A stretch of 51,158 nucleotides of DNA from the IMG/VR virus record IMGVR_UViG_3300019132_000034, positions 1 to 51,158 of that record; one strand, given 5' to 3'. The stretch is from a virus. Below the pieces are notes generated by a model. That model saw nothing but the letters and a program-made list of their open reading frames with translations. It had not been told where the DNA came from and made no database searches. Position 1 is the first letter of the stretch, and each line of letters starts with the position of its first letter. Of this stretch, positions 149 to 47,234 are shown piece by piece. A program made the position numbers and the translations under genes.

Positions 149-1708
149 TCAGAATTTCGGGTATAATCGAATTGTAAAGTCTTTTGGATCAGTCGACTCG
201 AGGGAACGTCGATAAGTCACCTTTTCAAGCACGGATTTGAGAAGGTGATTTTTCTTTTCCGCATCATCTGTACATAAATAGGTATCAATCACGTATTCTA
301 CTTGTTTGACATAGGAGTGCAGGTCTTTGTTTAGGTTTTCTTTTTCCTTCTTCATTTGTTCTTCAATCGTGTAAATTTCTTGCTGCTTTTCACGAATCCG
401 GTCAGCTATACGCTGCTGGCGACTCATAAATGTATGAATATCATAGACTCCTTGTTCTAGTAAATCGTGAAGATTTTCCTTTTGTTTTTCAAGGCTTTGT
501 AATTCTTTTTGTTTTTCTTTGAGGATTCGCTCCCAATTTTGTGTGAGAGTTCGCTGTTGCTTTTTTTGTTTAGCAGCGATATTTAAGTGTTTTAATAGTT
601 CGCGCATTCCTTCAACCACCGCTTCTTCAACATACTCCATCTTTGCAGACTTTTGTACTTTGTTAGCCCGGCATTCCATCGAGATACAACGGTAATAACA
701 ATGTACCCCATGATTTCGCTTTCTTGCGTAATTCCGTTCCATCGTGTGGCCGCATACTTCACACTTTAATAATCCTGCTAAAGGATTGACAAGGCTTTTA
801 GTTTGATTTTTTGGCGGTCTGTAACGGTTTGACATAATCCGTTGGGCACTTTCAAATATCTCACGTGACACTAGCGGAGCATGAGCATCTTTAGCGACGA
901 TAAGGGCGTTTTTGTCGGTGTATGTACGGGAAGTCTTGCCGTTCCCTTTTTTAAGTACAGACTTACGATAAACAATATCTCCCGCATAGGCTTCTCGCTT
1001 CAGGATCTTCATGACGCCATTATCTGTCCATCTTGACCCTCCAGGAGAAGGGATATTCAGTTGATTCAGATGTTCAGAAATCTCCGCACGTAGTTTTCCT
1101 TGATTGACAAACATATCAAAAATGAGTTGCACAATCCACGCGGTGTTCTCATCGGGGACGAGTTTTAGATTCTTATCTTTTTTATACCCATAGGGTGGTT
1201 TTGTCCCAATAAATTTGCCTTCTCGAGCACTTTGGTTCCGACCCCGAATCAGTCTCTTATTGATTTGTTTTAACTCTTCTCGAGCAATCAAAGATTTGAT
1301 GCTGAACGTTAATTCTTGTGACTCGTCAGATGGATCAATGACTTCTAAAGGGGTAATGATGAGAGTCTCGGTGTATTTTAAAATACGGTAAATCGTTCCC
1401 TGATCAGCCATGTCTCCACGACCTAAACGATCCAAATCCATTACCAATACCGCATCAACCGGCTGATGCTGTAAATCTCGCAACATTTCTTGCATTTTGG
1501 GGCGCTGATCCAAGTACTCACCAGACACCACTTCTTCATAGACTCCGATAATCGTATGTTTTTCATCTTTGGCAAGGTTGAATAGTTGTTTCCGGTGCCG
1601 CTCTAATGTGTCAAAAGTCCTACCTTGTGTCGCTGCTTTTTGTTCTTCTTCAATATCACGTCGGCTTTTTCGAAGATAGATAAATACGTTTAATCCCTGT
1701 GGTCTCAT
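149..1708 (-). CDS. Large serine recombinase (phage integrase)
   Basis: The 519-aa ORF has an N-terminal resolvase-type catalytic region (IYLRKSRRD...VMDLDRLGR) and a recombinase domain. It also has a Cys-rich zinc ribbon (CEVCGH...CYYRC) and a long coiled-coil C-terminus. Confidence 0.9.
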   Translation of the reverse strand: MRPQGLNVFIYLRKSRRDIEEEQKAATQGRTFDTLERHRKQLFNLAKDEKHTIIGVYEEVVSGEYLDQRPKMQEMLRDLQHQPVDAVLVMDLDRLGRGDMADQGTIYRILKYTETLIITPLEVIDPSDESQELTFSIKSLIAREELKQINKRLIRGRNQSAREGKFIGTKPPYGYKKDKNLKLVPDENTAWIVQLIFDMFVNQGKLRAEISEHLNQLNIPSPGGSRWTDNGVMKILKREAYAGDIVYRKSVLKKGNGKTSRTYTDKNALIVAKDAHAPLVSREIFESAQRIMSNRYRPPKNQTKSLVNPLAGLLKCEVCGHTMERNYARKRNHGVHCYYRCISMECRANKVQKSAKMEYVEEAVVEGMRELLKHLNIAAKQKKQQRTLTQNWERILKEKQKELQSLEKQKENLHDLLEQGVYDIHTFMSRQQRIADRIREKQQEIYTIEEQMKKEKENLNKDLHSYVKQVEYVIDTYLCTDDAEKKNHLLKSVLEKVTYRRSLESTDPKDFTIRLYPKF

Positions 1709-6591: not shown

Positions 6592-7401
6592 ATGGCTAAC
6601 TACCGTCATGTACACACATCTTTTTGGCAGGATGCTAAGGTACTTGAAGAGATGACGCCGGAAGATAAATATTTTTACCTTTATCTCTTAACGAATCCGA
6701 ACACTACACAAATCGGTGTGTACCAGATTACCAAAAAACAAATGGCTTTTGATTTAGGTTACTCGGTTGAATCGGTCAATAGTCTAATGCAGCGGTTTGA
6801 AACGGTTCACAATTTGATTCGATATAATCCAGAAACCAGAGAAATCGCTCTTCTGAATTGGGGGAAATACAATCTTAATAAGGCCGGAAAACCTGTTCTG
6901 GATTGCATCAATAAAGAGTTACAGGGTGTTAAGGATATATCGCTGCTTAAATTGATTGCTGAAAAAATTCCAAACGAAGAAGTACTCAAGTTATTTTCAC
7001 GATACGTTGACGACACGTATAACGACACGTTAGACGATACGTCAACGACACGTACCACGCCAAGTGGGGAAAAAGAAAAACAAAAAGAAAAAGAAAAACA
7101 AAAAGAAAAAGATAATATACCTTTTGTCGACGTGGTCGACTATCTCAATTCCAAGGCTAATACCAATTATCGGCATACATCTAAAAAGACACAACAACTC
7201 ATTAAAGCACGCTGGAACGAAGGTTTTCGTCTTGATGATTTTAAAACAGTGATAGATAAAAAAGTCACTGAATGGCTCAATGATCCGAAAATGAATAAAT
7301 ATTTACGGCCGGAAACCTTGTTTGGTACGAAGTTTGAATCCTATCTCAACCAAAAAGGCGGTGCGAATCATGCAAGCAGTCCGTACTCTGATCTCTTCTA
7401 G
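6592..7401 (+). CDS. Replisome organiser (DnaD-like)
   Basis: The N-terminal FWQD...YFYLYLLT and the C-terminal IPFVDVVDYLNSKANTNYRH...FESYLNQ are typical of phage replisome organisers. Start is at ATG 6592. Confidence 0.75.
   Translation: MANYRHVHTSFWQDAKVLEEMTPEDKYFYLYLLTNPNTTQIGVYQITKKQMAFDLGYSVESVNSLMQRFETVHNLIRYNPETREIALLNWGKYNLNKAGKPVLDCINKELQGVKDISLLKLIAEKIPNEEVLKLFSRYVDDTYNDTLDDTSTTRTTPSGEKEKQKEKEKQKEKDNIPFVDVVDYLNSKANTNYRHTSKKTQQLIKARWNEGFRLDDFKTVIDKKVTEWLNDPKMNKYLRPETLFGTKFESYLNQKGGANHASSPYSDLF
6999..7053. repeat. Five phased iterons ACGAYACGT (candidate ori)
   Basis: Copies start at 6999, 7010, 7022, 7034 and 7045, a spacing of 11-12 nt. All lie inside the organiser gene. Confidence 0.6.
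7064..7110. repeat. A-rich tandem repeat (GAAAAAGAAAAACAAAAA, 2 copies) next to the iterons
   Basis: Direct reading. The repeat encodes an EKEKQK repeat and forms an AT-rich tract. Confidence 0.6.
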
Positions 7402-8182
7402 GTTACAGATCGTTGGGACACGGGTTTGTGAAGGTTGTGGGAGTGAGGTCAACATCATCAAAACGGTATTCAGCGGTGAGGAACGGGAAATTAGTTATTG
7501 CTTGCGGTGCGAGGATAAAAAGATTCAAAAGGAGTGCAGTGATTACTACCAAGCGAGAGAGAAGCGCAAAGCGGAAATGATTTTTGAACGGTTTAGCTTT
7601 ATTTCTGATGATTTGAAGTACGCAAACTTTAGTAATTACATTCCCGATCATCCAAGCAAAGAGGAAGCTAAAAAGAAAGCGCAATGGTATGCAGAGAATT
7701 TCCCTCACATCTTGAACAGAGAATGGGATTGGCAGTCACTTCTCTTTCAAGGTAGCTACGGTTTAGGAAAATCTCACTTAGCATACAGCATTGCGCAGTA
7801 TGTAAAAAAACTCGGTTACGTTGTGATATTCCTAGATTCACCAAGTTTGCTGCGGGTTATACGCGAAAGTTACGACAAAGACAGTAAGTTTACGGAATCG
7901 GAAATCTTAGAAGCGTGTTACAATTCCGACTTATTGATATTAGATGACATAGGTGCAGAATATGTGAAAAGTGAAAACGGCTCCGAAAGTTGGGCGACTG
8001 ATAAATTGTTCCAAGTCATCTATTCGCGAATGGGAAAACCTACGATTTACACTACGAATTATACGGCGGATGAATTGGTGAAAAAATACGGTCAACATGG
8101 AGGTCGCATTGTTTCGCGGATGATGAAAGGAACAAAGGTTGTGAAGTTTGACGGGAAAGATTATCGCTTAAAAGGATTCTAA
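7370..8182 (+). CDS. DnaC/IstB-like AAA+ helicase loader
   Basis: Walker A (GSYGLGKSHL), Walker B (LLILDDIG) and an N-terminal Cys cluster. It follows the organiser gene. Confidence 0.8.
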   Translation: MQAVRTLISSRLQIVGTRVCEGCGSEVNIIKTVFSGEEREISYCLRCEDKKIQKECSDYYQAREKRKAEMIFERFSFISDDLKYANFSNYIPDHPSKEEAKKKAQWYAENFPHILNREWDWQSLLFQGSYGLGKSHLAYSIAQYVKKLGYVVIFLDSPSLLRVIRESYDKDSKFTESEILEACYNSDLLILDDIGAEYVKSENGSESWATDKLFQVIYSRMGKPTIYTTNYTADELVKKYGQHGGRIVSRMMKGTKVVKFDGKDYRLKGF

Positions 8183-8202
8183 CACGAAAGTAGGTGGCGT
8201 AG

Positions 8203-8376
8203 ATGTGCATGAAATGTAACGATACCGGTCGGGTATATACCGAAGTCATGAGGGGAGTGTATTCCTTCTCCCCTTGTACCTGCCATCATACTATGCAAGC
8301 AAGACAAGATTTAGAACAAGAACTTGCGGAAGTTCGAAAAAGGCTGGCGATGTTACGTGCTCAACAAACAGATTAA
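8203..8376 (+). CDS. Small Cys-rich protein (57 aa)
   Basis: CMKCNDTG...CTCHH motif, with RBS AGGTGG upstream. Confidence 0.45.
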   Translation: MCMKCNDTGRVYTEVMRGVYSFSPCTCHHTMQARQDLEQELAEVRKRLAMLRAQQTD

Positions 8377-8386
8377 TTTACTCAAT

Positions 8387-8611
8387 GTGGGACAATGGTT
8401 AACCTATATTGCGCTTGAAGATATGAATTTTCTTTGGTCGCATAACCAAGTCCGCGAATTTGATGAACTATGGAAGAGAGGGTATTCCATTCGTTATATA
8501 GCGGAATATTTTCACCGAAAACCGATAGAAGTTTTGCTTCTTGCGTTAGACCGAGCGGAAAAAGGGAAGATCGAGGAACGGAAAAACGGAATTTGGGGAG
8601 AAATAGACTGA
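8387..8611 (+). CDS. Hypothetical protein (start ambiguous: 8324, 8387 or 8423)
   Basis: Part of track ORF 8324-8611. An early start would overlap the preceding small ORF. Confidence 0.4.
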   Translation: MGQWLTYIALEDMNFLWSHNQVREFDELWKRGYSIRYIAEYFHRKPIEVLLLALDRAEKGKIEERKNGIWGEID

Positions 8612-8656
8612 GGTTTGTAGTAGACATATATAGCGTAACAAAGGAAGGGGATAGTC

Positions 8657-8809
8657 TTGTTTCTTAAGCAAATGAATGACCTAAAGAAAATAGCAAGAAA
8701 TATGAAGAAACAAGGGAAATCGGATGAACAAATTAAAAAAGCAATTAATTTATATCTTGTAACAAGCAAAAAGAAAATTAATCCTAATGGTGACTTAGAT
8801 GTAGTTTGA
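8657..8809 (+). CDS. Hypothetical small basic protein
   Basis: TTG start after AAGGAAGGGG. The ATG at 8672 is an alternative start. Confidence 0.3.
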   Translation: MFLKQMNDLKKIARNMKKQGKSDEQIKKAINLYLVTSKKKINPNGDLDVV

Positions 8810-8839
8810 TTAATACACAGTACGAAGATAAAACGCAAT

Positions 8840-9055
8840 ATGGGGGAGATGAACATGAAACGAGTGGGGAAAGTAATCGTTCTCCGTCCAAGGCAGCAGG
8901 ACAAATGGGATGTACTACGATACATTCAGCTAGCGGAAGGTAACGTCACGATGGAAGAACTGAATCAACATTTTGAAGATGTTTACGATGAGGAAATTGG
9001 TGAAGCAGTGATTGAATATCTCGCCGCTCGCCGTTCTCGAGTGGTGATTCAATGA
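8840..9055 (+). CDS. Hypothetical protein
   Basis: A 71-aa ORF. The internal ATG at 8855 has the better RBS (GGGGGAG). Confidence 0.5.
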   Translation: MGEMNMKRVGKVIVLRPRQQDKWDVLRYIQLAEGNVTMEELNQHFEDVYDEEIGEAVIEYLAARRSRVVIQ

Positions 9056-9597
9056 ATCTTTCAAAAGAATGGAATCCTGTACCGAAGCCGGTAAAAGAAC
9101 GAAAGGAAAAGCTACGCCCGAAGATACATGAGAAGCGTCCGAAGAAGAATCGAAAGAAGATAGAAGTATACAAGGGTCGTGTGATCCCGAAAGCAAAAGA
9201 CCGTACGAAAATCAGCAAGACCAACTACCACCGTATGATCGAGGAATTCGGATACCGCTGCTTGATTTGCGGAAAGACACCAATTGAAGCTCACCACATT
9301 GTTTTTCGTAGTCAGCTAGGTTCGGGGAATTGGAGAAACCTAGCACCTCTTTGTCAAATGCATCATAGAAAAGCCCACCAGGATAGAAACTTTGCTGAAT
9401 ACTTACGCCAGGAGCGAGCAGAACGATTTGGACCGCACTTTTGGAAAGACAAATATAGGCTCTTTAAAGAGGGATTGATTCTGAATACAACGGATTCGTC
9501 CTTTGAACAATTCATGAAGGAGGAAGAAAAACGTGGATTGGCTCGAATGGCAGAAAAAAGTGATAATCGAGGAATATGTGGAGGGGGAGAAAAATGA
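9052..9597 (+). CDS. HNH endonuclease with a Lys-rich N-terminus
   Basis: CLICGK...EAHHIVFRS...NLAPLCQMHHRKAH. Confidence 0.7.
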   Translation: MNLSKEWNPVPKPVKERKEKLRPKIHEKRPKKNRKKIEVYKGRVIPKAKDRTKISKTNYHRMIEEFGYRCLICGKTPIEAHHIVFRSQLGSGNWRNLAPLCQMHHRKAHQDRNFAEYLRQERAERFGPHFWKDKYRLFKEGLILNTTDSSFEQFMKEEEKRGLARMAEKSDNRGICGGGEK

Positions 9598-9713
9598 AAC
9601 GGTACGTAGTGGAGAAAACAACCAAAACGCCGGATGGAGAAAATCTAAAGGTCGTTGAGGTGCTGGATAGCAAACCAAAGAATTTTTCTTATATCGTGTT
9701 TATTGGAAAATAG
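9594..9713 (+). CDS. Hypothetical 39-aa protein
   Basis: ATGA overlap with the HNH gene. RBS GGGGGAGA. Confidence 0.35.
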   Translation: MKRYVVEKTTKTPDGENLKVVEVLDSKPKNFSYIVFIGK

Positions 9714-9783
9714 TCAATAATTCACCAATATACAATTGTAGTCTATTTGAATGGGAACAAAAAAGCGAACAGGGGGATTTGCC

Positions 9784-10215
9784 ATGATAAATCGAGTGAT
9801 TCTAGTAGGAAGATTAACTGCTGATCCTACCTTACGATACACACCTAATGGAGTAGCGGTTGCAACCTTTACATTAGCGGTCAACCGACCGTTTGCTAAT
9901 CAACAAGGGGAACGTGAAGCGGATTTTATTAACGTTCAAGTATGGCGTAAGCCGGCTGAGAACGTAGCGAATTATTTGCGAAAAGGAAATCTTGCTGGAG
10001 TAGATGGGAGATTGCAGACACGAAGCTATGAAGGACAAAACGGAAGGGTATATGTAACGGAAGTAGTCGCTGATTCGGTACAGTTTTTAGAGCCGAAGGG
10101 GAAAGGTAACGGAACACCAAACAACACGCCTACATACCAAAATCAAGTGTCTGCTGATCCGTTTAAAGGGGAGGGGACGTCAATTGACATATCCGATGAC
10201 GACTTGCCGTTCTAA
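9784..10215 (+). CDS. ssb: Single-stranded DNA-binding protein
   Basis: [15 protein letters not shown]...[11 protein letters not shown] fold and an acidic DDDLPF tail. Confidence 0.9.
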
Positions 10216-13789: not shown

Positions 13790-13902
13790 TAGCTATTCTC
13801 AAAGTCTGTCACTAGAACGAGCTAGTCTGAATCCTTTTGGCTTGGAAAACCAAAAGGAGCGAGTTTCGACAAACGCTGCTCCAATCGGGGGTGGCGTTTT
13901 TT
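13790..13902 (+). ncRNA. Structured RNA-like element A (paralogue of 20723-20835), ending in an intrinsic terminator
   Basis: Conserved 5' block TAGCTATTCTCAAAGYCTGTCACTAGAAC, then hairpin CCTTTTGG/CCAAAAGG. This is followed by conserved GGAGCGAGTTYCGACAA and a GC stem plus T-run. Confidence 0.5.
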
Positions 13903-14965: not shown

Positions 14966-15268
14966 ATAAAAAATCTAAGGTACACATTCTTTAAAATGAA
15001 ATAGGTAATTTTCTCTTTTTTCTCAATCAAAATGGCCGTAAAATATGAAGTATCTAATTCATTTTTACATACCTGTTAAATTTAGTAATACTAACGGATT
15101 CAGTGGATTACCCAATAATACGAAATATGGGTATGGGTAATTAGAGAAAAATCTAAATAAACATTAGTTCCTAGTAGTTTAGTGAACCATTAAATAGTTA
15201 GTTGTATTACCATTCTGTGAGTATGTAGAGTGAAGTTTGGCGGGGGGAACTTTGGAAGGGGAGTGGCT

Positions 15269-16108
15269 ATGACCTTTAATCATAGAATAGTTCCGGGACA
15301 AATACTAGAGAATCATGAAATTGTTTCTATTTTTAAATGTGCTCCTCGGGGTGGGATGCGTCGGTCATTAAGGACTAATTCTCTTGTAATAGTATCGGAC
15401 CATACCGAATCTTTATACGAAGATCGCTGGGAAGATGATGTGTTTCATTACACTGGAATGGGAAGGACAGGAGACCAAAAGTTAGATTCCGGACAAAATA
15501 AGACATTAGCAGAGTCACGTGCCAATGGGGTAGACATTTATCTTTTTGAAGTGTTTCGGGAAAAAGAATATGTTTTCATAGGACAGGTTGAGTTGGCTGG
15601 TCAGCCATATCAAGAGGAGCAGTTGGATATAGAAAATAATTTAAGATTAGTTTGGGTTTTTCCATTAAGATTAAGAGGCAACACCAAACCATTTGAACTT
15701 CCCCAAGAGTGGATTGAAACAAAAAATAAATCCAGGGAGAAAAAGGCAAAGAAGTTGTCAGATGGGGAGTTAAAGGTAAGAGCAAGGCATACCAGCAAGA
15801 AAGCAGTTAAACGTGCGACTAGTAAGATCTCATATGAGCGAAATCCTTATGTCAGCGAGTATGCAAAAAGATGGGCAAACGGTATATGCCAACTTTGTGG
15901 TGAGGAAGCGCCATTTCGAGATAAAAATGGGACCCCGTATTTAGAGTCCCACCACATTGAATGGTTAGCGCGCGGTGGAGATGATACAATTGAGAATACA
16001 ATTGCCCTTTGTCCAAACTGTCATAAGAAGATGCATATACTCGATCGAAAAAGCGATGTAGAAAAGCTAAAAAATCGTGTTAGAGAGCATCTTCTGTCCT
16101 TAATGTAA
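15269..16108 (+). CDS. SRA/YDG-like reader domain fused to an HNH nuclease (putative type IV modification-dependent restriction enzyme)
   Basis: N-terminal SLVIVSDH..LYEDRWEDDVFHYTGMGRTGDQ...QNKTLAES resembles the SRA YEDD..YTG.GG pattern. C-terminal HNH is CQLCG...ESHHIEW...NTIALCPNCHKKMH. The ATG at 15269 has RBS GGAAGGGGA. Confidence 0.6.
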   Translation: MTFNHRIVPGQILENHEIVSIFKCAPRGGMRRSLRTNSLVIVSDHTESLYEDRWEDDVFHYTGMGRTGDQKLDSGQNKTLAESRANGVDIYLFEVFREKEYVFIGQVELAGQPYQEEQLDIENNLRLVWVFPLRLRGNTKPFELPQEWIETKNKSREKKAKKLSDGELKVRARHTSKKAVKRATSKISYERNPYVSEYAKRWANGICQLCGEEAPFRDKNGTPYLESHHIEWLARGGDDTIENTIALCPNCHKKMHILDRKSDVEKLKNRVREHLLSLM

Positions 16109-16136
16109 ATGTTCGTAATTAGGTGGTCGATCAATA

Positions 16137-16466
16137 ATGAAAGAATTGATTCAGAAAGTTGTCATGTTTCGAGATAAACGAAACTGGAAACAATTTCACA
16201 ATGCTAAAGATCTTGCAATATCTTTATCTATTGAGGCAAGTGAGCTTCTTGAAAATTTTCAGTGGAAGACAAGCGAGGAAGCTGTTAAGGAAAACTTAGA
16301 AGATATTAAAGATGAGGTTGCTGATGTTGTTATTTATGCAATGTTGCTTTCGAATGAATTAGATTTTAACTTAGAAGAAGTTATTGAGCAGAAAATAAAG
16401 AAAAATGAAGAAAAGTATCCGATTGAAAAGGCATACGGAAGTAATAAAAAGTACAACGAATTATAG
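16137..16466 (+). CDS. MazG-like all-alpha NTP pyrophosphatase (dCTPase/DCTPP1-like)
   Basis: EASELLENFQW and EVADVVIYAMLL metal-binding motifs. Length 109 aa. Confidence 0.7.
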   Translation: MKELIQKVVMFRDKRNWKQFHNAKDLAISLSIEASELLENFQWKTSEEAVKENLEDIKDEVADVVIYAMLLSNELDFNLEEVIEQKIKKNEEKYPIEKAYGSNKKYNEL

Positions 16467-16519
16467 GAATATGAGGGATTTACCTATATTTCGTTTTTCT
16501 AAGGACGGGTGATATTAGG

Positions 16520-17527
16520 ATGTTGTACTACTTTACTGCTAGCGACGATGATGCACAGAAACATTTCTATGATACTATTGAACAGCCGTGTAACATTGGA
16601 AAGTATATCTCTATGCTTGACTCTGCTACTGTAGATATTTTAAAGCAGAACAGTAAAGATAAATATGTACATATGTGGGGGGCAACACCAGGAAAATCTA
16701 ACCGAGATCGGTGGGATAAATTAAAATCTGGAGATAAAATATTGGCTTACTCTAAGGGAGTATTTCTGTATTACGGAACAATTTTCGCTAAAACACAAAA
16801 CCAGAGAGTTGCTGAGTTAATTTGGGGGACCAATAAAGAAGGGGAGACTTGGGAGTATATCTACTTTATTAAAGATCTCAGGAAGGTAGAAATTCCTGTA
16901 GAAAAATTTAACGCATTTTTTGATTATAAAATGAACTTTACCCCTCAAGGCTTTTCGAATATTGAAAAGAAAAGGTTTACTTTGAGATATGAAAAATACG
17001 GATCAATTGACAAAATAATTGAAGTTCTTGAAAGTCAATTTATTATCTCTGAAGAAGAAATAGAAGAGGATAATTATCAAATAAGTATTCAGTCTTCTTC
17101 ATTGAATAAGGTTAAGATTGAGGGGGGGATTAAACCTGAAAAACGTCCGAAACCAAGGAAAGAAAAGGGAAAGCAGGTATGGCCAAGGGATCCGAAAAAA
17201 GCTCAACAAGCGTTGAAGAGAGCTGAGTTTAAATGTGAGATTGATGAATCACATATAACGTTCATGAGTGAGGCAAGTAATGTCCCTTATATGGAAGCAC
17301 ATCATTTAATACCACTGAAAATGCAACATGAGTTTGAACAAAGCTTAGATGTGATCGGTAATATTGTTAGTTTATGTCCAAACTGTCATCGAATGATTCA
17401 CCATGCGAAACCTAGGGAAAAGAAGAAGTTATTAGAACAATTGTATCAGAAACGAAAATGTGAGTTAGAACAAAGTAGTTTAAATATTGATCTTGAATAT
17501 TTGTTGAGTGTATACGCAATAAAATAG
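16520..17527 (+). CDS. HNH nuclease with an N-terminal PUA/EVE-like putative reader domain
   Basis: C-terminal MEAHHLIPL...NIVSLCPNCHRMIHH. The N-terminal 150 aa (WGATPGKSN..W..LKSGDKILAY...WEYIYFI) is assigned only tentatively. Confidence 0.55.
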   Translation: MLYYFTASDDDAQKHFYDTIEQPCNIGKYISMLDSATVDILKQNSKDKYVHMWGATPGKSNRDRWDKLKSGDKILAYSKGVFLYYGTIFAKTQNQRVAELIWGTNKEGETWEYIYFIKDLRKVEIPVEKFNAFFDYKMNFTPQGFSNIEKKRFTLRYEKYGSIDKIIEVLESQFIISEEEIEEDNYQISIQSSSLNKVKIEGGIKPEKRPKPRKEKGKQVWPRDPKKAQQALKRAEFKCEIDESHITFMSEASNVPYMEAHHLIPLKMQHEFEQSLDVIGNIVSLCPNCHRMIHHAKPREKKKLLEQLYQKRKCELEQSSLNIDLEYLLSVYAIK

Positions 17528-17632
17528 CATCTTACCGGTTAATCGGGGCATACTGAAAGGGTTTTGGTGCTTGTTTGGTCAAATAGATGTTAAGATGAAA
17601 TAAACGGTTTGTTATTTACCTGAAGTTAACAG

Positions 17633-18037
17633 GTGGGGAGGAGAGTTGAATCTGCATTGGAGAAATATCGATTTTATCTCCTAACGGTTCCAGAGGAAAA
17701 GCTACCGAGGGTGGCAGTGGCATATTCATTTGTTCCTCCTGCTCACATCAATCGTTTTTATTCATCTACAGAAAGCGCGGCCATCCAAATAGCAGATTTT
17801 GAACGAGAACGCGATGAGTACATGGAGAGAATACGCCGCGTAGTGAATCGGCTCAATAAAACGGAGCGAGGATTGATTAGACGATATATGACGCTTGAAG
17901 AACCTTATGATTACGAGATCTACAACGACATGGGAATCAGTGAATCGAGGTTCTACCGCGTTCGCGAAAAGGCGTTCTACAAGCTGGCCTTTGCGTTGCG
18001 GATTGAGGTTTACAAAGAAGAAGAGGCACCTGTTTAG
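17633..18037 (+). CDS. ArpU-family transcriptional regulator, paralogue 2
   Basis: A 134-aa ORF with the ArpU-type pattern LEKYRFYLL...S.TE.A...DFERERDEYM...YRVREKAFYKLA. Confidence 0.7.
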   Translation: MGRRVESALEKYRFYLLTVPEEKLPRVAVAYSFVPPAHINRFYSSTESAAIQIADFERERDEYMERIRRVVNRLNKTERGLIRRYMTLEEPYDYEIYNDMGISESRFYRVREKAFYKLAFALRIEVYKEEEAPV

Positions 18038-18052
18038 GGTGCTTTATTATTT
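18026..18052 (+). terminator. Possible intrinsic terminator
   Basis: GCACC/GGTGC stem followed by a T-rich run. Confidence 0.4.
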
Positions 18053-18194
18053 ACTCAGTATATAGTGTGATATTGGTAAAAACCAGGATGTAACATTGTA
18101 TATGTTTACCTGAGTATTTTCAACATTTTTTAATTGATTAAATATAAATTAATTACTAAAATATTACTATAAAGGAAGAAAAGGAGGGGATTAA

Positions 18195-18659
18195 ATGCCA
18201 ACGGTCTTCGAGGTCGCAAGATACTTTTTAAGTAAAAGCGTCCCAAATACTCCGTGGGCAATTACCCACCTAAAATTACAAAAATTAGCTTATTATGCAC
18301 AAGGTTGGTATCTAGCTTTTACTGGAAATGTTCTATTTAATGAAAGACTAGAGGCATGGGTTCATGGGCCTGTTAGTCCTGATCTTTTTCATAAATATAG
18401 GAGATTCGGACACAATGAAATACCACAAGAAGATTTCCCAGATAGTAGGTCCATTTTTACAAAAAAACAACTAGAGGTGCTCGATGCCGTATGGGAAGCA
18501 TATGGGGAATACAGTGGAAAGTTTTTAGAAGAATTAACCCACCAAGAACTTCCTTGGCTTGAAGCAAGATCAAATCTTGATTCCAATGATTATTCAAATG
18601 AAGTTATTTTGGTTGATACAATACGTTCATATTTTAGAAACCAGCTAGGAGACGAATAA
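18195..18659 (+). CDS. DUF4065 / Panacea-domain (GepA/SocA-like) antitoxin-like protein
   Basis: THLKLQKLAYYAQGWYLAF.G..LF.E..EAWVHGPV hallmark. Confidence 0.75.
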   Translation: MPTVFEVARYFLSKSVPNTPWAITHLKLQKLAYYAQGWYLAFTGNVLFNERLEAWVHGPVSPDLFHKYRRFGHNEIPQEDFPDSRSIFTKKQLEVLDAVWEAYGEYSGKFLEELTHQELPWLEARSNLDSNDYSNEVILVDTIRSYFRNQLGDE

Positions 18660-18679
18660 CCTTTTTCGTCTCTTAATTT

Positions 18680-20569
18680 GTGTTAAATGGAGGGAAAGCA
18701 TTGTATTTGGAAAGGGTAAGAGAGATTATCAGATGGGTTATTATTGTGCTCAAAAACCTACTAATTTTTTGTTTTAGACTCATTTTTTCTATTAGTCAAT
18801 TGTACGGACTCTTAGTCAGAAGAACGTTTGTTTTATTGATACTTTACGCAATTATTTATTATTTATTATTTTACAGGTTTTCTATTGCACAGTTTCAGGC
18901 AGATATTAATCAAGAAAATGAAATGTTTTTAGCAAAAATATTTAAGTATGTGCATATTTTTCAAGCGAATGATGAAGTAGTGATGCAAATTATCTCTTCC
19001 GGAACAAAGTTTTTAAGTGTTGTATTCTCTGTAATATTGACACTATTTATTTTTTCGCATAGGGAACAAAGAGCAATCGCACCTTCGTCAACTTACCGGT
19101 TTTATAAAAACTATATTTTTTTATTTTTTCTTTCATTATTAATGATAACTATGCCTTACGGGTTTCACTTATCACTTATCTATAAGTCTAGTTTACATAC
19201 ACAATATTCGGAATTGGGTATTACTATTACATACTTTGGACGATTTGTTACATGGATTATTCTCTTCTTATTTTCCATTGTGCTTATTGGATATACAATT
19301 GTTTCTTTATTTCGAACTATTAACATTAATTGGTTATTACCTGTAACTATTCAACAAGTAAGATCCACATTAATAAACCTGGAGGTTGTGTTGGATAACA
19401 GGTGGTTTAGGAAAACAAGAATAAATGAATACAATGAATTGAATTTTAATATTGAAAGTGTTTATCAAATGCTTGAATATGCTGCTGAAAATAATATGAG
19501 CAAAGACTATTATGATAATATAGAAAAACTACGAGAAACGTTCTCTATTCTAAAAAAGGAACATTTTTATTATAAATCATCATCAGTCTACGCAAGTTTT
19601 TATAATAGGGACCAAGAAGAGTTTAGATCTTTTCATAGGTCTGTCTTAAAAAATACCTTATCATTAGCTACTGCTCTATATAAAAATAATAAGTTTAACA
19701 AAGGACAGAAAGCATTGGACCTATTATTTTCTCTATACTCAGATAAAATTCCTCCCGTTTTGAGGCATGACTATATTGCGAGTATTTATGAGTTAATACA
19801 ATTAACTGATTTAAAAAATGGGGCAAAAGTTCGTGCAATTTTAAACGGTTTGGAAACAATGAAGACGGAATATACACTCATTTTGTATCAAGCTCTAATA
19901 CTTCGAATAATTAGTGAGAACAACATACAATTACTAACGTCAGTTGTTTACTCAATGAAAAAAAATATAGATAGGAATATAAAGCCTAATAACGGTGGAA
20001 TACCACGTATTGAGTTAATTATTAATAAAGCTTTAAAAAGAAAATATAAGCTGTTGAATATAGGGATACTTTTACAGTGTATGGTGAAAAGTATTGAGTT
20101 GTCTCATTACGCTTGTACAGGCTTTTTAATAAAATTTCTTGTTACAAACTTCAGTGGAAAATTGGTGAAGGAAGCTTTTAATGCTTTGTTGAATAATGGA
20201 ATGGTTTTTGGTACTATCTATCCCAACATGGGGGAGAACGTGCATTTAGACATTGATTACTACTTCAACGAAAAAACATACGATTATTGCTTAAAGAAAT
20301 TGTGTATTCTATTGTACGGGCAACAAAGGTATGCAGTAAGAAACGGTCTATCTTTTATTGAAGAATTTCATAAAGAGTCGTATGAATACATTGATATAGG
20401 ATCGGCATTCGTAGAGTGTGACTACAAAGAATATATATTTACTAAGGTATTGTCAGCAGGGAAAAAGTATGGATTTCTTTATCTAAAGGATAAGGAATTC
20501 TTAAGAGATCTTGCTAAGGATTTTGGTGTTCAAACATTATTGATGGAGGAGTTGCTTCCTGACCTTTAA
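18680..20569 (+). CDS. Large polytopic membrane protein of unknown function (candidate toxin/effector partner of the Panacea protein)
   Basis: About 6 hydrophobic helices in the first ~215 aa, then an alpha-helical soluble region of about 400 aa. The gene is AT-rich. The likely true start is TTG 18701, after GGAGGG. Confidence 0.6.
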   Translation: MLNGGKALYLERVREIIRWVIIVLKNLLIFCFRLIFSISQLYGLLVRRTFVLLILYAIIYYLLFYRFSIAQFQADINQENEMFLAKIFKYVHIFQANDEVVMQIISSGTKFLSVVFSVILTLFIFSHREQRAIAPSSTYRFYKNYIFLFFLSLLMITMPYGFHLSLIYKSSLHTQYSELGITITYFGRFVTWIILFLFSIVLIGYTIVSLFRTININWLLPVTIQQVRSTLINLEVVLDNRWFRKTRINEYNELNFNIESVYQMLEYAAENNMSKDYYDNIEKLRETFSILKKEHFYYKSSSVYASFYNRDQEEFRSFHRSVLKNTLSLATALYKNNKFNKGQKALDLLFSLYSDKIPPVLRHDYIASIYELIQLTDLKNGAKVRAILNGLETMKTEYTLILYQALILRIISENNIQLLTSVVYSMKKNIDRNIKPNNGGIPRIELIINKALKRKYKLLNIGILLQCMVKSIELSHYACTGFLIKFLVTNFSGKLVKEAFNALLNNGMVFGTIYPNMGENVHLDIDYYFNEKTYDYCLKKLCILLYGQQRYAVRNGLSFIEEFHKESYEYIDIGSAFVECDYKEYIFTKVLSAGKKYGFLYLKDKEFLRDLAKDFGVQTLLMEELLPDL

Positions 20570-20632
20570 GGGGGATAAGAAGATTGTTCCCCATTGGAAT
20601 CCATTCAGGAATTCCATTTTAATTAGGGATAG

Positions 20633-20670
20633 TGACAGAAAACTGAAGGAAAAATGACGGAAAGATGACA
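20633..20670. promoter_or_regulatory. Three phased TGAC(A/G) boxes upstream of RNA element B
   Basis: Boxes at 20633, 20655 and 20666, a spacing of 22 and 11 nt. Confidence 0.3.
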
Positions 20671-20722
20671 GATTATTTTGGTTTAGACGTGTTATGATGG
20701 TATCGTGGATCTTTTGTTGAAG

Positions 20723-20835
20723 TAGCTATTCTCAAAGCCTGTCACTAGAACTAGCGAGTCCGAATCTCGTTTGTGTGGAAAGCAGGCGGGAGCGAGTTCC
20801 GACAAGCGTCACCCGATCAGGTGGCGTTTTTATTT
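20723..20835 (+). ncRNA. Structured RNA-like element B (paralogue of 13790-13902), ending in an intrinsic terminator
   Basis: Same conserved blocks as copy A. The central stem CTCGTTTG/CAGGCGGG and the terminator stem CGTCACC/GGTGGCG differ in sequence from copy A but still pair. Confidence 0.5.
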
Positions 20836-20880
20836 TGGCGGTTTAAATATTATAATTAACTTGAGGGAGGGCGGAAAAGG

Positions 20881-21615
20881 ATGGAAAATTTTATTTCTCT
20901 ACTAGTTTTTACGTTACCAGGTTTATTAACTTATTTCTGGATCCAATTATTCGGTTTAACCCCAACCGTTAAACATCAAAGTACAGAGATGTTGGCAATT
21001 AGTGCTCTATTATGGATACCGGTTATGGTTACAGTATTATTCTTTTATCAATTATTGGCGTATGCTTCAAGCTTAGACATGTTCTATTTGGGAGTTGATA
21101 TACCAATTTTAAAAAAAGATTGGACCATGATAAATAAGTTAAGTGACATAGTTACTTTGCCCGACAATGTATGGTTTTTATTATATTTTGTAGCATCAAG
21201 TATAATAGTTAGTTTTTATGTAGCAAAATTTATATGTAAAAAGGGTTATAAAAAATTATTACATAAGGTTAACCAAATTCGTAAAGAAAATGGGTTAGCT
21301 CCATTATCTGGAAATACAACAGTTTGGAACGAAGCATTTTTGGGAAATGAAGGGCAATTAGTCGAGGTTTACAAAATTGATAAACCAGACGAAAAGGTGA
21401 TTGGTTGTATAAAAAAAGTGTCCAGAGCGTTCGAGCCCGAAAAAAATATTGTTCTTGAGGGCGTCGAGCACTGGACAGAAGTGATGAAACATTATCACGT
21501 TGAAATCGATGATATATTTATTGATACTAAAACAGGATTGGTAATTAAGATATATAATACAGATCAGGCACTAGAGGCGCAGAACTTATACAACAACAGT
21601 AAAGCTACTTCTTAG
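20881..21615 (+). CDS. Membrane protein of unknown function
   Basis: A 244-aa ORF with about 4 N-terminal hydrophobic helices. RBS GAGGGAGGG. Confidence 0.6.
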   Translation: MENFISLLVFTLPGLLTYFWIQLFGLTPTVKHQSTEMLAISALLWIPVMVTVLFFYQLLAYASSLDMFYLGVDIPILKKDWTMINKLSDIVTLPDNVWFLLYFVASSIIVSFYVAKFICKKGYKKLLHKVNQIRKENGLAPLSGNTTVWNEAFLGNEGQLVEVYKIDKPDEKVIGCIKKVSRAFEPEKNIVLEGVEHWTEVMKHYHVEIDDIFIDTKTGLVIKIYNTDQALEAQNLYNNSKATS

Positions 21616-21736
21616 GCTGAACACCTGTTGAAGGTGGCTTCATGGTTAATGAAGGCTTGTCTGCAGAATTCTGTTGATGTCCCTGTCCAGTACCAATTGG
21701 TTTGACATTAGTCTGAAATGGGGGTCTTTTTCCCAT
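21605..21736 (-). CDS. Hypothetical 43-aa Pro/Gly/Gln-rich protein
   Basis: ATG follows GGAGGTAAAAATT on the minus strand, downstream of the DUF2188 gene. Confidence 0.4.
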   Translation of the reverse strand: MGKRPPFQTNVKPIGTGQGHQQNSADKPSLTMKPPSTGVQPKK

Positions 21737-21943
21737 AATTTTTACCTCCTTTGCTATATATACTTTAGTAAACTATAAACCAATGTACAAAGTTAGTTAG
21801 GCTAAAGTCCCCGGGTAAGAGGTATTTTTTTGCTCTTAGAAGCCGTAAAGATAAAAAAAGGTGATAATTAAAAGCACCTTAGGATGTTTCTTCTTTTTTC
21901 ATAAAAAGAACCACCAAGACGTTGGTAAAGTTAATTTTAAGAA

Positions 21944-22168
21944 TTAGCCTTTAGGTGGAAAAGTGTCGTTTCCATATGAATCTTTAGCACGAATTCTTCC
22001 ATCTGGTCTGTGAATAACAAGCTCCAACGCTTCTTTCCGGGCAATATCTCTTGCTTTATCTACTGCATCTTTTTGAGTATCATGTCGCGAAGAAGCTCTC
22101 GGCGCCCCACCTCTTTTTACTTGCCATCCACCGTCTGGATGTGGTGTAACGTGTATTGTATCTGACAT
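21944..22168 (-). CDS. DUF2188-family protein
   Basis: DGGWQVKRGGA.RASS.H.TQKDAV..AR.IA......LVIHRPDGRI...SYGND..PPKG. Confidence 0.7.
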   Translation of the reverse strand: MSDTIHVTPHPDGGWQVKRGGAPRASSRHDTQKDAVDKARDIARKEALELVIHRPDGRIRAKDSYGNDTFPPKG

Positions 22169-22238
22169 AATTCCACCTCCTTTCTTTTTACAAAATTCCC
22201 CAAAAAGGAAGAAAATTCCTTCTTTTTTGTCGAATTAG

Positions 22239-22466
22239 GTGGATAGAAGGGGGAGAAATTTGGAAGAGGCAACTCAAGCTATTCAAAAACTTGCGTGGAC
22301 ACTAACCTTAAAACTCGTATGGCTTATATTATTGATGTTTGTGTTTTATGCTTTGGCCTTCTTTCTCGCGAGGTCTCTTCGTTTACCATTTAAGATAGCC
22401 AATACATTCGGCAGCCTGGCTAGCCTGGTTGGTTTTTACTTTTGGACTCAATACATAATTTCTTAA
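22239..22466 (+). CDS. Small two-helix membrane protein
   Basis: Hydrophobic segments LVWLILLMFVFYALAFFLA and LASLVGFYFW. TTG 22260 after AGGGGGAG is an alternative start. Confidence 0.5.
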   Translation: MDRRGRNLEEATQAIQKLAWTLTLKLVWLILLMFVFYALAFFLARSLRLPFKIANTFGSLASLVGFYFWTQYIIS

Positions 22467-22483
22467 TCATATTGAGAAATTTG

Positions 22484-22510
22484 GCATCCGAATAATCGGG
22501 TGCTTTTTTA
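22484..22510 (+). terminator. Intrinsic terminator
   Basis: GCATCCG/CGGGTGC stem followed by TTTTTT. Confidence 0.7.
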
Positions 22511-22594
22511 TTTGCTACAAATACTGAAAGGTGATACTGCATAAAAATTGTCCGTATTCTCGTAGAAATGATAAATCCAACACCATAATACTCC

Positions 22595-22738
22595 ATGGAA
22601 AAGTATCGAAAAATTGAGCAAGCGGGGATTGGACAATGGCTAAAAGATTTCAAAAGCGGCCAGATCAAGATAAGTACAGTAGATGATTTAGAAAAACTCA
22701 TCAAAATTGACCTCATGCTACAAAAGCGAAAGCTGTAA
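22595..22738 (+). CDS. Hypothetical 47-aa protein preceding terminase
   Basis: An ATG ORF just upstream of terS. Confidence 0.4.
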   Translation: MEKYRKIEQAGIGQWLKDFKSGQIKISTVDDLEKLIKIDLMLQKRKL

Positions 22739-22797
22739 AACAAACACAACTCAATGGATTATAGGTTTTTCTGTGCAGGAGGTGGTGAATATGAGAG

Positions 22798-23691
22798 GTG
22801 GCTAGGCAAAGAGATCCTAAACGAGATGAAGCTTTTGAAATATGGAAAAATAGCGGAGGAACTAAAAAATTAAACGAGATTGCCGAGGAGCTCGGAGTAA
22901 GTCCAGGAACGGTTCGTGGTTGGAAAAATAAAGATGCCTGGGAAGAAAAATTAAACGGAACGTTCCAAAAAAAGAAACGGAGCGCTCTTGTAAATGAAAC
23001 GGAACGTTCCAAACCTAAAAGGGGAGCGCCGCTAGGAAATAAAAATGCTTTAGGTAACAAAGGAGGGGCTCCGCCTGGTAATAAAAACGCAGTAGGTAAT
23101 AAAGGTGGAGCCGCTCCTCTGAGAAATGCTAATGCGGTGAAAACCGGTGAGTTCAGGAGTCTGTGGTATGACATATTAGATGAAGATGAAAAGCAATTGG
23201 TGAATCAAATTGAGGTTGTCGAACCGATTCAACAAGTGATTGATGAAATTAAATTGTACTCTTTCCGGGAAGCGTTCATTATGAAACGGATTAAGGCACT
23301 CAAAGAAGGGATGACCTCCGCTCAAAAACGGGTGTTAAAACAACTAAAAAAAGTGAAGGACAAAGTGAAGGTAGATGATCCGAATAGCAGCGAAGGCTAC
23401 CGCATAATCGAAAAGGAAGATTATAAGTTGATGGAGACGGAAATTGAGGAGATTTCCGCAGATCCGGTGGAACAAGTTTTAGCCCACGAGGAAGCCCTTA
23501 CTCGAGTTCAAGATAAAAAGGTTAAGGCTTTGGATTTGCTGTTTCGTATGACAGATGAGTTTAATCATAAAAAGTTGATGGATGAAATTAAAACAACCAT
23601 CCTGCAAGAGAAATGGGACAAAGAGAAAAAAGGAAATGAGGATGACAAACCGATTGAAATCATCATTAAACGAAAAGGTGATGATGGATGA
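22798..23691 (+). CDS. terS: Terminase small subunit
   Basis: N-terminal HTH ([22 protein letters not shown]) and repeated GAPxGNKNAxGNKGG motifs. It lies directly upstream of terL. Confidence 0.8.
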
Positions 23692-28309: not shown

Positions 28310-28462
28310 ATGTGGTTGCAGAGCAAGAAAACCGGAAAGAAGTGGTTTATTGCCAATGAGGATCATGCCAAACGCTTACTGAAAAATGGCGATTTTGAAC
28401 AAGTAGAGGTAGAAGAGAAAAAGTTACAGAAAAAAGCGGCATCTAAAAGTGATCAAGAATGA
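28310..28462 (+). CDS. Hypothetical 50-aa protein
   Basis: ATG follows GGAGGTGGA. ATGA overlap with the next gene. Confidence 0.45.
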   Translation: MWLQSKKTGKKWFIANEDHAKRLLKNGDFEQVEVEEKKLQKKAASKSDQE

Positions 28463-29769
28463 AAAATCTCAATAAAACCCCAGAAATGATTGAACAACTC
28501 GTAAATAAACGAGTGAAAAAGGGGGAGCGGGATATCGTCAAACGGTACGCTCTCCTTTTAAATGACATTCGTAAGGAATTAGCCAAGCTGTATGAAAAAT
28601 ATGAGGTAGACGGCAAGCTTACGTTTGCAGAAATGGCCAAATATGATCGGCTCAAGAAGTTTCTTGATTATATGAATTGGCTATTGGGGGCCGTGTACAG
28701 AGACCTTAAAAAAGTAGTTTACAATATTCTCGGTGAATCGTATCTGGATGGCTATTATCTCACTGCGTGGGCGGTTGAAACGGATACATTAAGCCGTTTA
28801 AACTATTCCGCTGTTCCTGCGTCTACCATTGCTGCCATGATTGAGAATCCCATTTCCGGCCTAACCTTATCACAGCGCCTGGAAAAGAATCGAGCGGGGA
28901 TTATCTATACCATACAGCAAGAAGTGACACAGGGATTGGTTAACGGTGAAAGCTATAAGAAAATGGCCAAACGCCTAAAGAGCGCTCTTGAAGGTGATAC
29001 AGTCAAAGCTATGCGAATTGTACGGACAGAGGCTCATCGAGTTGTTGAATCCTCAAAACATGATGCCGCTGAACATGCTCATAAAAATGGTGTAATCATG
29101 ATGAAGGAATGGAACAGTATGCAGGATCAGCGGGTTCGTGACCGCCATAAGCGGCTGGATGGACAGAAAGTTCCGGTTGATCAAGATTTTAAATTAGGTC
29201 CTGTTATCGGAAAAGCGCCAGGACAAATGAGCGGAGGAGCCGCCATGAATGTTAACTGTCGCTGTTTTCTCACATATTCCGTGGAACGTATCGAGAAAGT
29301 TGATGCAAAAGAATTGGAAGGTATGACGTTTGAGGAGTGGAAGGAAACTAGACTTAGCGGTGCGAAAAAACGGACGATGAGTGATGTTGAAAATGAGATA
29401 AAACGTGATATCATTAATGGTAAATATAACCTGAAAATGAAAAAAGAAAGTTATGAGAAACACTTAAAGGGGCATAAACGTTATATAGAATATCAGCAAC
29501 GAAACCGAGCCCAAGGAAAATTCGGACCGAGTTATTTAACCGTTAGCGCCGAAGAAGCTCAAGAACTCATCTATAAGTATGCAGGTACCGGAACCCTGGA
29601 ATTTGATCGTAAAGGTAACTGGACTCACAAAGAAATTATCGAAGCGGATCAGGATATCGGCGTTCATGTATCATTAACTGATGGAGCGGAAACGCCGAGC
29701 AATCGCTTTAAAATACATTATTCAAAATCAGGAACACATATTGTACCTACTCAAAGAAGGGAGGATTAA
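28459..29769 (+). CDS. Head morphogenesis protein (SPP1 gp7 / Mu F-like) with a C-terminal extension of about 145 aa
   Basis: The Mu F-like core (RIVRTEAHRV...W.S..D.RVRDRH..LDGQ...NCRC) ends near aa 280. An extra domain follows. Confidence 0.75.
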   Translation: MKNLNKTPEMIEQLVNKRVKKGERDIVKRYALLLNDIRKELAKLYEKYEVDGKLTFAEMAKYDRLKKFLDYMNWLLGAVYRDLKKVVYNILGESYLDGYYLTAWAVETDTLSRLNYSAVPASTIAAMIENPISGLTLSQRLEKNRAGIIYTIQQEVTQGLVNGESYKKMAKRLKSALEGDTVKAMRIVRTEAHRVVESSKHDAAEHAHKNGVIMMKEWNSMQDQRVRDRHKRLDGQKVPVDQDFKLGPVIGKAPGQMSGGAAMNVNCRCFLTYSVERIEKVDAKELEGMTFEEWKETRLSGAKKRTMSDVENEIKRDIINGKYNLKMKKESYEKHLKGHKRYIEYQQRNRAQGKFGPSYLTVSAEEAQELIYKYAGTGTLEFDRKGNWTHKEIIEADQDIGVHVSLTDGAETPSNRFKIHYSKSGTHIVPTQRRED

Positions 29770-46615: not shown

Positions 46616-46621
46616 AAAATA

Positions 46622-47229: not shown

Positions 47230-47234
47230 ATGTA

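Follow-up and report, generated by a model that had tools for sequence, protein, structure and literature searches.

The stretch of DNA analysed here, which we call the window, comprises positions 1 to 51,158 of IMG/VR virus record IMGVR_UViG_3300019132_000034, 51,158 nucleotides (nt) in all, and by its gene content it is the genome of a temperate phage integrated in a bacterium of the Bacillaceae. Between the gene for an ArpU-like late activator and the small terminase gene the window carries two adjoining genes on the plus strand: panA, whose product of 154 amino acids (aa) consists of a single Panacea (DUF4065) domain, and a far larger gene whose product is a membrane protein. We argue below that the two very probably form one functional module, which travels as a cassette among mobile elements and in which the small protein would hold the large one in check. 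The features of the locus are these:

18023-18045: terminator-like hairpin that closes the ArpU-like late-activator gene
18048-20544, plus strand: mobile cassette (promoter region, panA, hairpin and large gene), delimited by blastn against locus L001
18134-18162, plus strand: promoter-like site upstream of panA (TTGATT, 17 nt, TAAAAT), from a consensus scan
18182-18188, plus strand: ribosome-binding site of panA, AGGAGGG
18195-18659, plus strand: panA, 154 aa, single-domain Panacea protein (DUF4065) with the WVHGPV signature
18646-18675, plus strand: stem-loop of 11 base pairs, TAGGAGACGAA / TTCGTCTCTTA, then ATTTGTGTT
18701-20569, plus strand: large partner gene, 622 aa, TTG start, member of an undescribed Bacillota family
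20804-20829, plus strand: strong intrinsic terminator that closes the transcription unit

PanA matches the Pfam family SocA_Panacea (PF13274) over the full model (E 1.1e-22; 81.5 bits against a cut-off of 25.7) and PHROG 1281 with an E value of 5e-47. The original prediction, made by a model from the letters of the window, had recognised the domain by the stretches LKLQKLAYYAQGWYLAF and EAWVHGPV, and both are indeed there; WVHGPV occupies residues 55-60, and the HGPV motif is kept in all ten partner PanAs taken from related loci. This is the part of the domain that matters for function in characterised systems, the GPV motif having proved critical for neutralisation in the Panacea survey (PMC8832971), and single-domain PanAs neutralise through direct contact (PMC10440598). 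A phmmer search for PDB relatives of PanA returned none. The NCBIfam model NF047745 (SocA_antitoxin) is matched only in part, over residues 8-92, with an E value of 9.6e-16 and 58 bits against an equivalog cut-off of 190, and on that score and coverage we rejected the idea that PanA is a SocA equivalog.

The longest form of the large open reading frame runs from a GTG at 18680 to 20569 and would encode 629 aa. The in-frame TTG at 18701 is the better start: it lies 6 nt after a GGAGGG ribosome-binding site (18689-18694), and the 622-aa product is also the one given by the gene caller (P0001). The distance from the panA stop codon is 20 nt to the GTG and 41 nt to the TTG, much as the 20-40 nt first proposed. 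The two genes were also said to be markedly AT-rich, and they are, with a GC content of 37.0% in panA (25% at third codon positions) and 29.8% in the large gene against a window mean of 40.0% (standard deviation 2.9% over windows of the same size); no other stretch of its size in the window has a GC content as low as that of the large gene.

What ties the two genes together is their behaviour in other genomes. Related loci were fetched through ten exact-protein look-ups and from four species genomes, six IMG/VR records and one metagenome, and to these we added one Parageobacillus chromosome, reached through a PanA search, and four plasmids of the Bacillus cereus group; Panacea genes were found by profile searches of all open reading frames. 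In every one of the 26 loci in which both flanks of the large gene are visible (near-duplicates included; about 21 are distinct), a Panacea gene lies on the same strand and directly adjoins it. The sole locus without one, L020, comes from a sequence that stops 67 nt past the large gene. Measured between the longest open reading frames, the gap ranges from -14 to 148 nt and is at most 100 nt nearly everywhere, the longer gaps being those of L013 (148 nt) and L028 (131 nt), and the hosts of paired loci include Paenibacillus, Brevibacillus, Bacillus, Parageobacillus and Pelosinus. Co-occurrence across genomes had been proposed as a check on the pairing, and by this check the two genes are co-conserved. 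They also co-evolve: over 15 non-redundant loci, the pairwise identities of the two proteins are correlated with a Mantel r of 0.82, a value that none of 5000 permutations reached (Spearman 0.44), PanA being the better conserved of the two, with a mean identity of 49% against 30% for its partner. A correlation of this size is compatible with a complex between PanA and the large protein.

The pair is also mobile as a unit. The closest relative of the window's locus is L001, a recombinase/PrimPol island whose large protein is 66% identical, and when 18041-20880 was compared with it by blastn, query positions 8-2504 aligned with L001 positions 7361-9883 at 70.5% nucleotide identity. The flanks of the two loci are unrelated and the similarity is confined to 18048-20544, and because it ends there we take the mobile unit to consist of the promoter region, panA, the hairpin and the large gene. 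Judging by this comparison, the 2.5-kilobase cassette is one that moves between unrelated mobile elements. Its contexts are prophage accessory regions, B. cereus-group plasmids, a Tn7-like element and serine-recombinase islands, and the flanking genes differ at every locus; among them are a lysis cassette with HicAB, an integrase/repressor module, Tn7-like tnsABC-tniQ genes, a serine recombinase with PrimPol, ParA and XerS. Genes of defence systems recur nearby: PARIS AriA/AriB in L016, a type II restriction-modification pair in L012, a PD-T4-1-like protein with an Mrr-like nuclease in L001, a TIR-domain protein in L027, Shedu together with a retron-type ATPase/HNH and DUF262 in L028, and HicAB in L002. 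In the window, the cassette is closely preceded by a MazG gene and by the genes of two HNH proteins that have type IV restriction-like matches.

The order of the genes, their decay and their exchange give further hints of what each does. In most loci panA comes first; the order is reversed in L005 and L012. Two loci carry a broken large gene beside an intact panA. In Alicyclobacillus macrosporangiidus (L014, 5500-6250) about 350 codons are missing from the interior of the large gene, which also has an in-frame stop within its DYCLKK motif, and in Paenibacillus sp. WLX2291 (L012, 5611-7589) it is frameshifted near a T/A run at about 6640-6660, a frameshift that could be a sequencing error. The reverse, a broken panA beside an intact large gene, was found in none of the fetched loci. 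Elsewhere, related PanAs are joined to other proteins: a Thermoflavimicrobium PanA, 44% identical and assigned to cluster T1 of the Panacea survey, overlaps the gene of a 138-aa soluble protein, and another PanA relative overlaps that of a DUF2335 protein. Close relatives of PanA thus hold unrelated partners in the same position, and the large protein therefore sits in the slot that is filled by toxins elsewhere.

The large protein belongs to a family of its own. Searched exhaustively with a profile, 1.84 billion representative proteins yielded 214 family clusters (at 50% identity) with E <= 1e-3, 146 of the 214 representatives at E <= 1e-30, against the 8-10 relatives that a word-indexed homologue search returned; that the family at first seemed extremely rare was due in part to the word index. 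Members are 600-730 aa long and occur in Paenibacillus, Brevibacillus, the B. cereus group (several of them on large plasmids), Parageobacillus, Desulfuribacillus, Alkalihalophilus, Schinkia and Pelosinus, and all of those that carry a name are annotated "hypothetical protein". On the sequences sampled, the family is real, rare and restricted to Bacillota. The window's protein matches no model in Pfam, PHROGs or NCBIfam, and a Pfam search of ten long relatives, in which fused domains were sought, gave none, the only hit being a weak, sub-threshold one to CCB1 in P0031 (E 0.0014; 18.5 bits against a cut-off of 25). Three distant family members, each scanned as a single protein against IMG/VR, gave no match, and tblastn against 50,697 deposited phage genomes gave none either.

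From hydropathy, computed for P0001 alone and, with charge counts, as averages over 90 family members, and from AlphaFold2 models, the 622-aa protein divides into the following predicted parts:

18728-18796, plus strand, residues 10-32: variable N-terminal hydrophobic helix that precedes the membrane core
18824-19300, plus strand: conserved membrane core of four transmembrane helices
19061-19069, plus strand: R121-E122-Q123, in the motif F-x-(Y/H)-R-E-Q-(K/R)-x-x-S-x-S
19322-20566, plus strand, residues 208-622: cytoplasmic all-alpha domain of about 415 aa
20006-20530, plus strand, residues 436-610: C-terminal subdomain, with the highest conservation in the protein

Where the original prediction had counted about six transmembrane helices, the family-averaged hydropathy gives four to five: four conserved ones, at residues 42-60, 97-115, 139-157 and 182-200, and the variable one. 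In the 90-member averages, lysines and arginines number 7.2 before the first conserved helix and 8.0 after the last, the loop with the motif F-x-Y-R-E-Q-K-x-x-S-x-S has 3.3, and the first outer loop is acidic. Because these counts fit, both termini of the four-helix core are taken to be cytoplasmic, the N-in/C-in topology predicted by the positive-inside rule. R121-E122-Q123 lies at the cytoplasmic end of the second conserved helix, in the most conserved element of the membrane half; it is invariant in an alignment of 10 sequences, and in the 90-sequence alignment F118 is conserved in 100%, E122 in 82% and S129 in 84%.

The cytoplasmic domain has a helical-repeat, solenoid-like middle part and, after it, the C-terminal subdomain, in which K463, E466, G474, K478, Y529, K533, Q541, Y578, K582 and Y590 are near-invariant. 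AlphaFold2, given the 10-sequence alignment, models the full-length protein as all-helical with a mean predicted local distance difference test score (pLDDT) of 77.7 and a predicted template modelling score (pTM) of 0.70, and the C-terminal subdomain alone with a pLDDT of 80.2 and a pTM of 0.80. With the full-length model as query, Foldseek found nothing in PDB or BFVD at E <= 1e-3; what it matched were ARM/HEAT/TPR and designed repeats of a generic kind, all with TM-scores below 0.31. The C-terminal subdomain was modelled and searched separately so that the helical repeats could not mask matches, and against the same two databases it gave none better than E 0.25; this best match, tryptophan dioxygenase (TM-score 0.28), was rejected as its fold. 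Nor did a comparison of the sequence profile with PDB chains yield anything credible, its hits, to Csm2 (the best, E 0.011, over a short helical stretch) and to designed proteins, all being at chance level. No NTPase or STAND module was recognised in the large protein, in that no family model matched and no Walker A motif was seen by eye, a motif search not having been made. The description of this region as a helical domain of about 400 aa with no recognisable motif therefore holds, at about 415 aa and with neither a motif nor a fold match.

The regulation of the two genes appears to be unusual as well. The promoter-like site at 18134-18162 falls within the stretch conserved with L001, and its position is only suggestive, since as a class such sites are no more frequent in this AT-rich region than expected by chance. 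The stem-loop at 18646-18675 holds the panA stop codon (18657-18659) in its loop, and it folds with a free energy of -16.6 kcal/mol (z -5.1), a stability equalled in 0 of 200 shuffles. A hairpin on or just 3' of the panA stop codon, usually followed by a T-run, is present in 18 of the 20 intact fetched loci with the order panA to large gene (the window and 17 others), and its stem sequences vary from locus to locus. A shuffle test found it in 13 of 13 intact panA-first loci, with z from -2.3 to -7.1, and it also occurs in L023, L026, L027 and L029. It is absent from L028, from one degraded locus and from both junctions of the two reversed loci, and likewise from the T1 and DUF2335 pairs. The natural reading, by analogy, is that the hairpin serves as an attenuator that would hold the antitoxin message in excess. 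In type III loci, the palindrome between toxI and toxN is a transcriptional terminator that sets the relative transcript levels (PMC3401426); type II operons of E. coli show no evident internal terminators (PMC5535158).

A second promoter-like site, at 18593-18622 on the plus strand, lies in the 3' end of panA, 24 nt 5' of the hairpin; it has an extended -10 (TTCAAA, 18 nt, TG-TACAAT), and such sites occur here at chance frequency.

Taking these observations together, we favour, with a probability of roughly 0.6 for the explanation as a whole, an autonomously transcribed accessory cassette (a moron) of a temperate Bacillaceae phage that carries a two-gene module of the PanAT type, in which PanA restrains a membrane protein that arrests or kills the cell. 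On every sequence-level criterion used by the Panacea survey the pair is a PanAT pair, and we therefore file it as PanAT-type. It is probably a toxin-antitoxin or abortive-infection module, because its members are always together and often stand beside anti-phage defence genes. The original prediction had proposed such a pair with an unusually large membrane effector; the functional linkage is upheld by adjacency, co-evolution, mobility and the defence islands, and none of these observations singles out the membrane domain as the part that would kill.

How might such a module work? We infer toxicity, direct binding, a membrane target, a trigger and attenuation by the hairpin, as follows. The 622-aa protein would sit in the inner membrane by its four conserved transmembrane helices, with both ends and the 415-aa all-alpha domain in the cytoplasm, and the single-domain PanA would bind the cytoplasmic part directly and so keep the protein inactive. 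Transcription would reach the large gene only in part, the hairpin on the panA stop codon letting a fraction of transcripts pass and leaving the antitoxin message in excess. If PanA were lost or displaced, as might happen when a phage infects or when the element is lost, the membrane protein would become active and the cell would be arrested or killed, most likely by damage to the integrity or the potential of the membrane. Regulation or sensing would fall to the large cytoplasmic domain, which would also be where PanA docks. There are precedents for the individual steps: complexes of PanA and PanT have been shown for five soluble toxins and membrane-targeting PanTs have been validated (PMC8832971), and contact of a single-domain Panacea protein with the region that precedes the transmembrane segment of the toxin has been predicted and backed by mutagenesis (PMC10440598).

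Several observations weigh against this explanation. At 600-730 aa the partner is far above the size of typical toxins of toxin-antitoxin systems, and neither protein has a match among the defence models of PADLOC-DB v2.0.0, the best hits being at chance level (Csx1, E 0.027, for the large protein; PbeC, E 0.04, for PanA). Not every candidate in this class is a toxin either: eight PanT candidates, one of them phage-borne, were non-toxic in E. coli (PMC8832971). The topology has hydropathy and the positive-inside rule as its only basis. The strongest conservation is found in the cytoplasmic C-terminal subdomain rather than in the transmembrane helices, and because conservation peaks there the active part may differ from the membrane domain. 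A genuine terminator between panA and the large gene could equally mean that the two are expressed separately, and the promoter-like site at 18593-18622, if active, could give the large gene a transcript of its own, with a stem-loop at its 5' end.

A more specific version deserves tentative consideration, and we rate it as possible and no higher: the large protein may be a self-contained abortive-infection sensor-effector of new fold, with PanA as its guard and the terminator as a safety device. A phage component, or the loss of PanA, would be sensed by the helical-repeat and C-terminal cytoplasmic domains, upon which the four-helix core would open or oligomerise and collapse the membrane potential. 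Were this so, the family would be an uncatalogued anti-phage family of Bacillota, spread by prophages, plasmids and transposons.

The same biochemistry could also serve mainly to stabilise the mobile element by post-segregational killing, rather than to defend against phages. That every context of the cassette is mobile (prophages, large B. cereus-group plasmids, a ParA-bearing contig, a Tn7-like element and recombinase islands) is what addiction would lead one to expect. Yet the cassette recurs among known defence genes and, in prophages, takes the accessory positions usual for superinfection defences, so that we consider addiction an unlikely main role; the two roles can in any case coexist.

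Alternatively, the large membrane-anchored protein may be no toxin and have another job, such as superinfection exclusion at the membrane, sensing or scaffolding, or catalysis with a new all-alpha fold, the Panacea protein being its regulator, sensor or assembly partner. The size of the protein, atypical of toxins, suits this idea, as does the clustering of conserved polar residues in the C-terminal subdomain (K463, E466, K478, Y529, K533 and Q541), which together resemble a putative binding or catalytic site; moreover, the NetFlax authors propose Panacea as a sensor (PMC10440598), and some PanT candidates lack toxicity (PMC8832971). The asymmetric decay points the other way, the large gene having been broken beside an intact panA twice and the reverse never having been seen, and so do the unrelated partners that close PanA relatives hold in the same slot and the confinement of the hairpin to the order panA to large gene, where it would limit downstream expression. 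All three suit a dangerous partner better than a benign one, and we regard a non-toxic role as improbable.

In a third alternative PanA would be an adaptor that delivers its partner to ClpXP for degradation, as in the type VI system SocAB. SocA has a Panacea domain, the partial match of PanA to the SocA_antitoxin model (E 9.6e-16) recalls it, and the Panacea survey leaves a role for proteases open (PMC8832971). That match, however, stays at 58 bits where an equivalog requires 190 and ends at residue 92 of PanA, and extraction of a polytopic membrane protein would fall to FtsH more readily than to ClpXP. Since the PanAs that have been tested were independent of ClpXP and Lon and formed stable complexes (PMC8832971), we think this very unlikely. 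Finally, that the adjacency is coincidental or the large open reading frame spurious, for which nothing speaks beyond the tendency of AT-rich regions to contain long spurious frames, is excluded by the 214 homologous clusters with conserved motifs, the confident AlphaFold2 model, the adjacency in all 26 informative loci, which span different genera and mobile elements, and the co-evolution.

The surroundings of the PanAT-type cassette in the window are those of an ordinary temperate phage with further cargo:

149-1708, minus strand: serine recombinase, at the left end, with a cI-like repressor
20723-20831, plus strand: element of about 110 nt that ends in the terminator 20804-20829, with a second copy at 13790-13901
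22798: small terminase gene, followed rightward by large terminase, SPP1-type portal, tape measure and amidase

DNA similarity to deposited phages is limited to the ArpU-like activator of Geobacillus phage GBSV1. One copy of the 110-nt element lies inside a 235-nt untranslated stretch 3' of the large gene. The two copies are 77-82% identical by blastn and alignment, and their consensus fold, a long-range stem, an inner hairpin and the terminator, includes three compensatory pairs between the copies. An Rfam scan of 17500-22900, which takes in the copy at 20723-20831, gave no match, and a conserved 29-mer of the element is absent from IMG/VR. It is a candidate for a structured RNA or a repeated terminator module, and because of its second copy we assign it to the prophage, outside the mobile cassette.

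Other genes of the window may be accessory as well. Upstream, at 15230-17527 on the plus strand, two genes for HNH-domain proteins (292 and 335 aa) enclose one for a MazG-like pyrophosphohydrolase. The HNH regions of both proteins match PADLOC models of type IV methyl-directed restriction (E 1.4e-20 and 4.4e-12), and because the cluster lies just upstream of the late activator it could represent defence, counter-defence or packaging-associated HNH genes. Downstream, at 20881-21615 on the plus strand, an AT-rich gene (32% GC) encodes a 244-aa membrane protein with a sub-threshold match to DUF6338 (E 9e-6; 25.8 bits against a cut-off of 26.5) and has a terminator-like hairpin of its own at 21718-21736. 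It looks like a second accessory gene adjoining the PanA cassette; we rejected it as part of the module because no related locus has it beside the cassette. A DUF2188 gene at 21944-22168 (E 8e-27) is the sole minus-strand gene between the late activator and terminase genes. Among the structural genes, 28459-29769 on the plus strand encodes a Mu F-type head-morphogenesis protein with a C-terminal Ntox50 toxin domain (E 4.8e-28), which looks like a MuF-toxin fusion and is probably packaged in the virion. At the prophage end, right of the lysis gene (45344-48296), genes for a TnpB-like protein (with a Cas12f1-like TNB domain) and an Mrr_cat restriction-endonuclease-like protein add to the mobile or defence cargo.

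Why does this pair matter? Its partner protein stands out as a conserved family of 600-730 aa that has no model, name or fold relative, and in Bacillus, Paenibacillus and their relatives it is carried, in the company of defence genes, by prophages, plasmids and transposons. If the large protein proves toxic and protective, a new class of effector would join the defences of Bacillota, which are of relevance to industrial Bacillus and Geobacillus strains and to work on phages and hosts of the B. cereus group, and the pair would offer a tractable case of a small Panacea domain that controls a large membrane protein.

Comparison with known systems begins with the validated membrane PanTs, namely those of E. 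coli STEC O31 (T3), Bartonella apis (T12), Helicobacter sp. (T4) and B. choladocola (D11) (Kurata et al. 2022, PMC8832971; Ernits et al. 2023, PMC10440598). As in these systems, a single-domain Panacea antitoxin with the GPV motif lies just upstream on the same strand, the partner has transmembrane helices, and the two-gene unit is kept across species on mobile elements and prophages, with variable order and swapped partners. Unlike them, going by the published descriptions of those PanTs as small peptides or short proteins, the partner here is much bigger than any membrane PanT described so far. The Helicobacter T4 toxin has a coiled-coil N-terminus and C-terminal transmembrane helices, whereas the protein here has an N-terminal four-helix core followed by the 415-aa domain; and typical PanAT genes overlap or nearly touch, whereas here a conserved terminator-like hairpin stands between them. 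Two established clusters were considered as a home for the family and rejected: T4, to which a Pelosinus entry and odd CDD hits had pointed, has the different architecture of the Helicobacter toxin, and the T1 partner is the unrelated 138-aa soluble protein. A literature search found no description of a Panacea gene paired with a large polytopic protein. The accessions and host genomes of the family do not occur in the covered part of the supplementary tables of the two studies (PMC8832971, PMC10440598), and because that coverage was partial an earlier listing as an unnamed cluster is possible.

Among more distant systems, SocAB of Caulobacter likewise has a Panacea antitoxin, though PanA falls below the SocA cut-off, and SocB is a small soluble protein. 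It acts as a replication inhibitor and is degraded by ClpXP (PMC8832971). RosmerTA of Gordonia phage Kita (RmrT D5, RmrA D25) is likewise a phage-encoded two-gene module; its toxin, part of which is membrane-localised, depolarises and permeabilises the membrane, and its anti-phage defence has been shown experimentally (PMC10440598). Unlike the pair described here, which is known from sequence, RosmerTA has an antitoxin of the ImmA/IrrE type and an unrelated toxin.

Single-chain defence proteins that join a helical-repeat sensor to a membrane effector are known, as are membrane abortive-infection effectors of the RexB type, and the large protein resembles them in combining transmembrane helices with a large alpha-helical repeat region that might bind a phage protein; searches of PADLOC and, with Foldseek, of PDB and BFVD found no sequence or fold similarity to either kind. 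A parallel to the layout of the cassette is found in type III ToxIN, where a terminator palindrome stands between the antitoxin and toxin genes, in the same position as the hairpin here (PMC3401426). ToxIN pairs an RNA repeat array, as antitoxin, with an endoribonuclease as toxin. The analogy is one of regulation only, and a terminator between the two genes is a layout otherwise documented for type III systems. Because Panacea antitoxins pair with many unrelated toxins, a new partner is to be expected in principle, and from the sequences compared here the large protein is likely to be just that: a new family of PanA partners with an unusual architecture and regulation and with a toxin-antitoxin or abortive-infection function.

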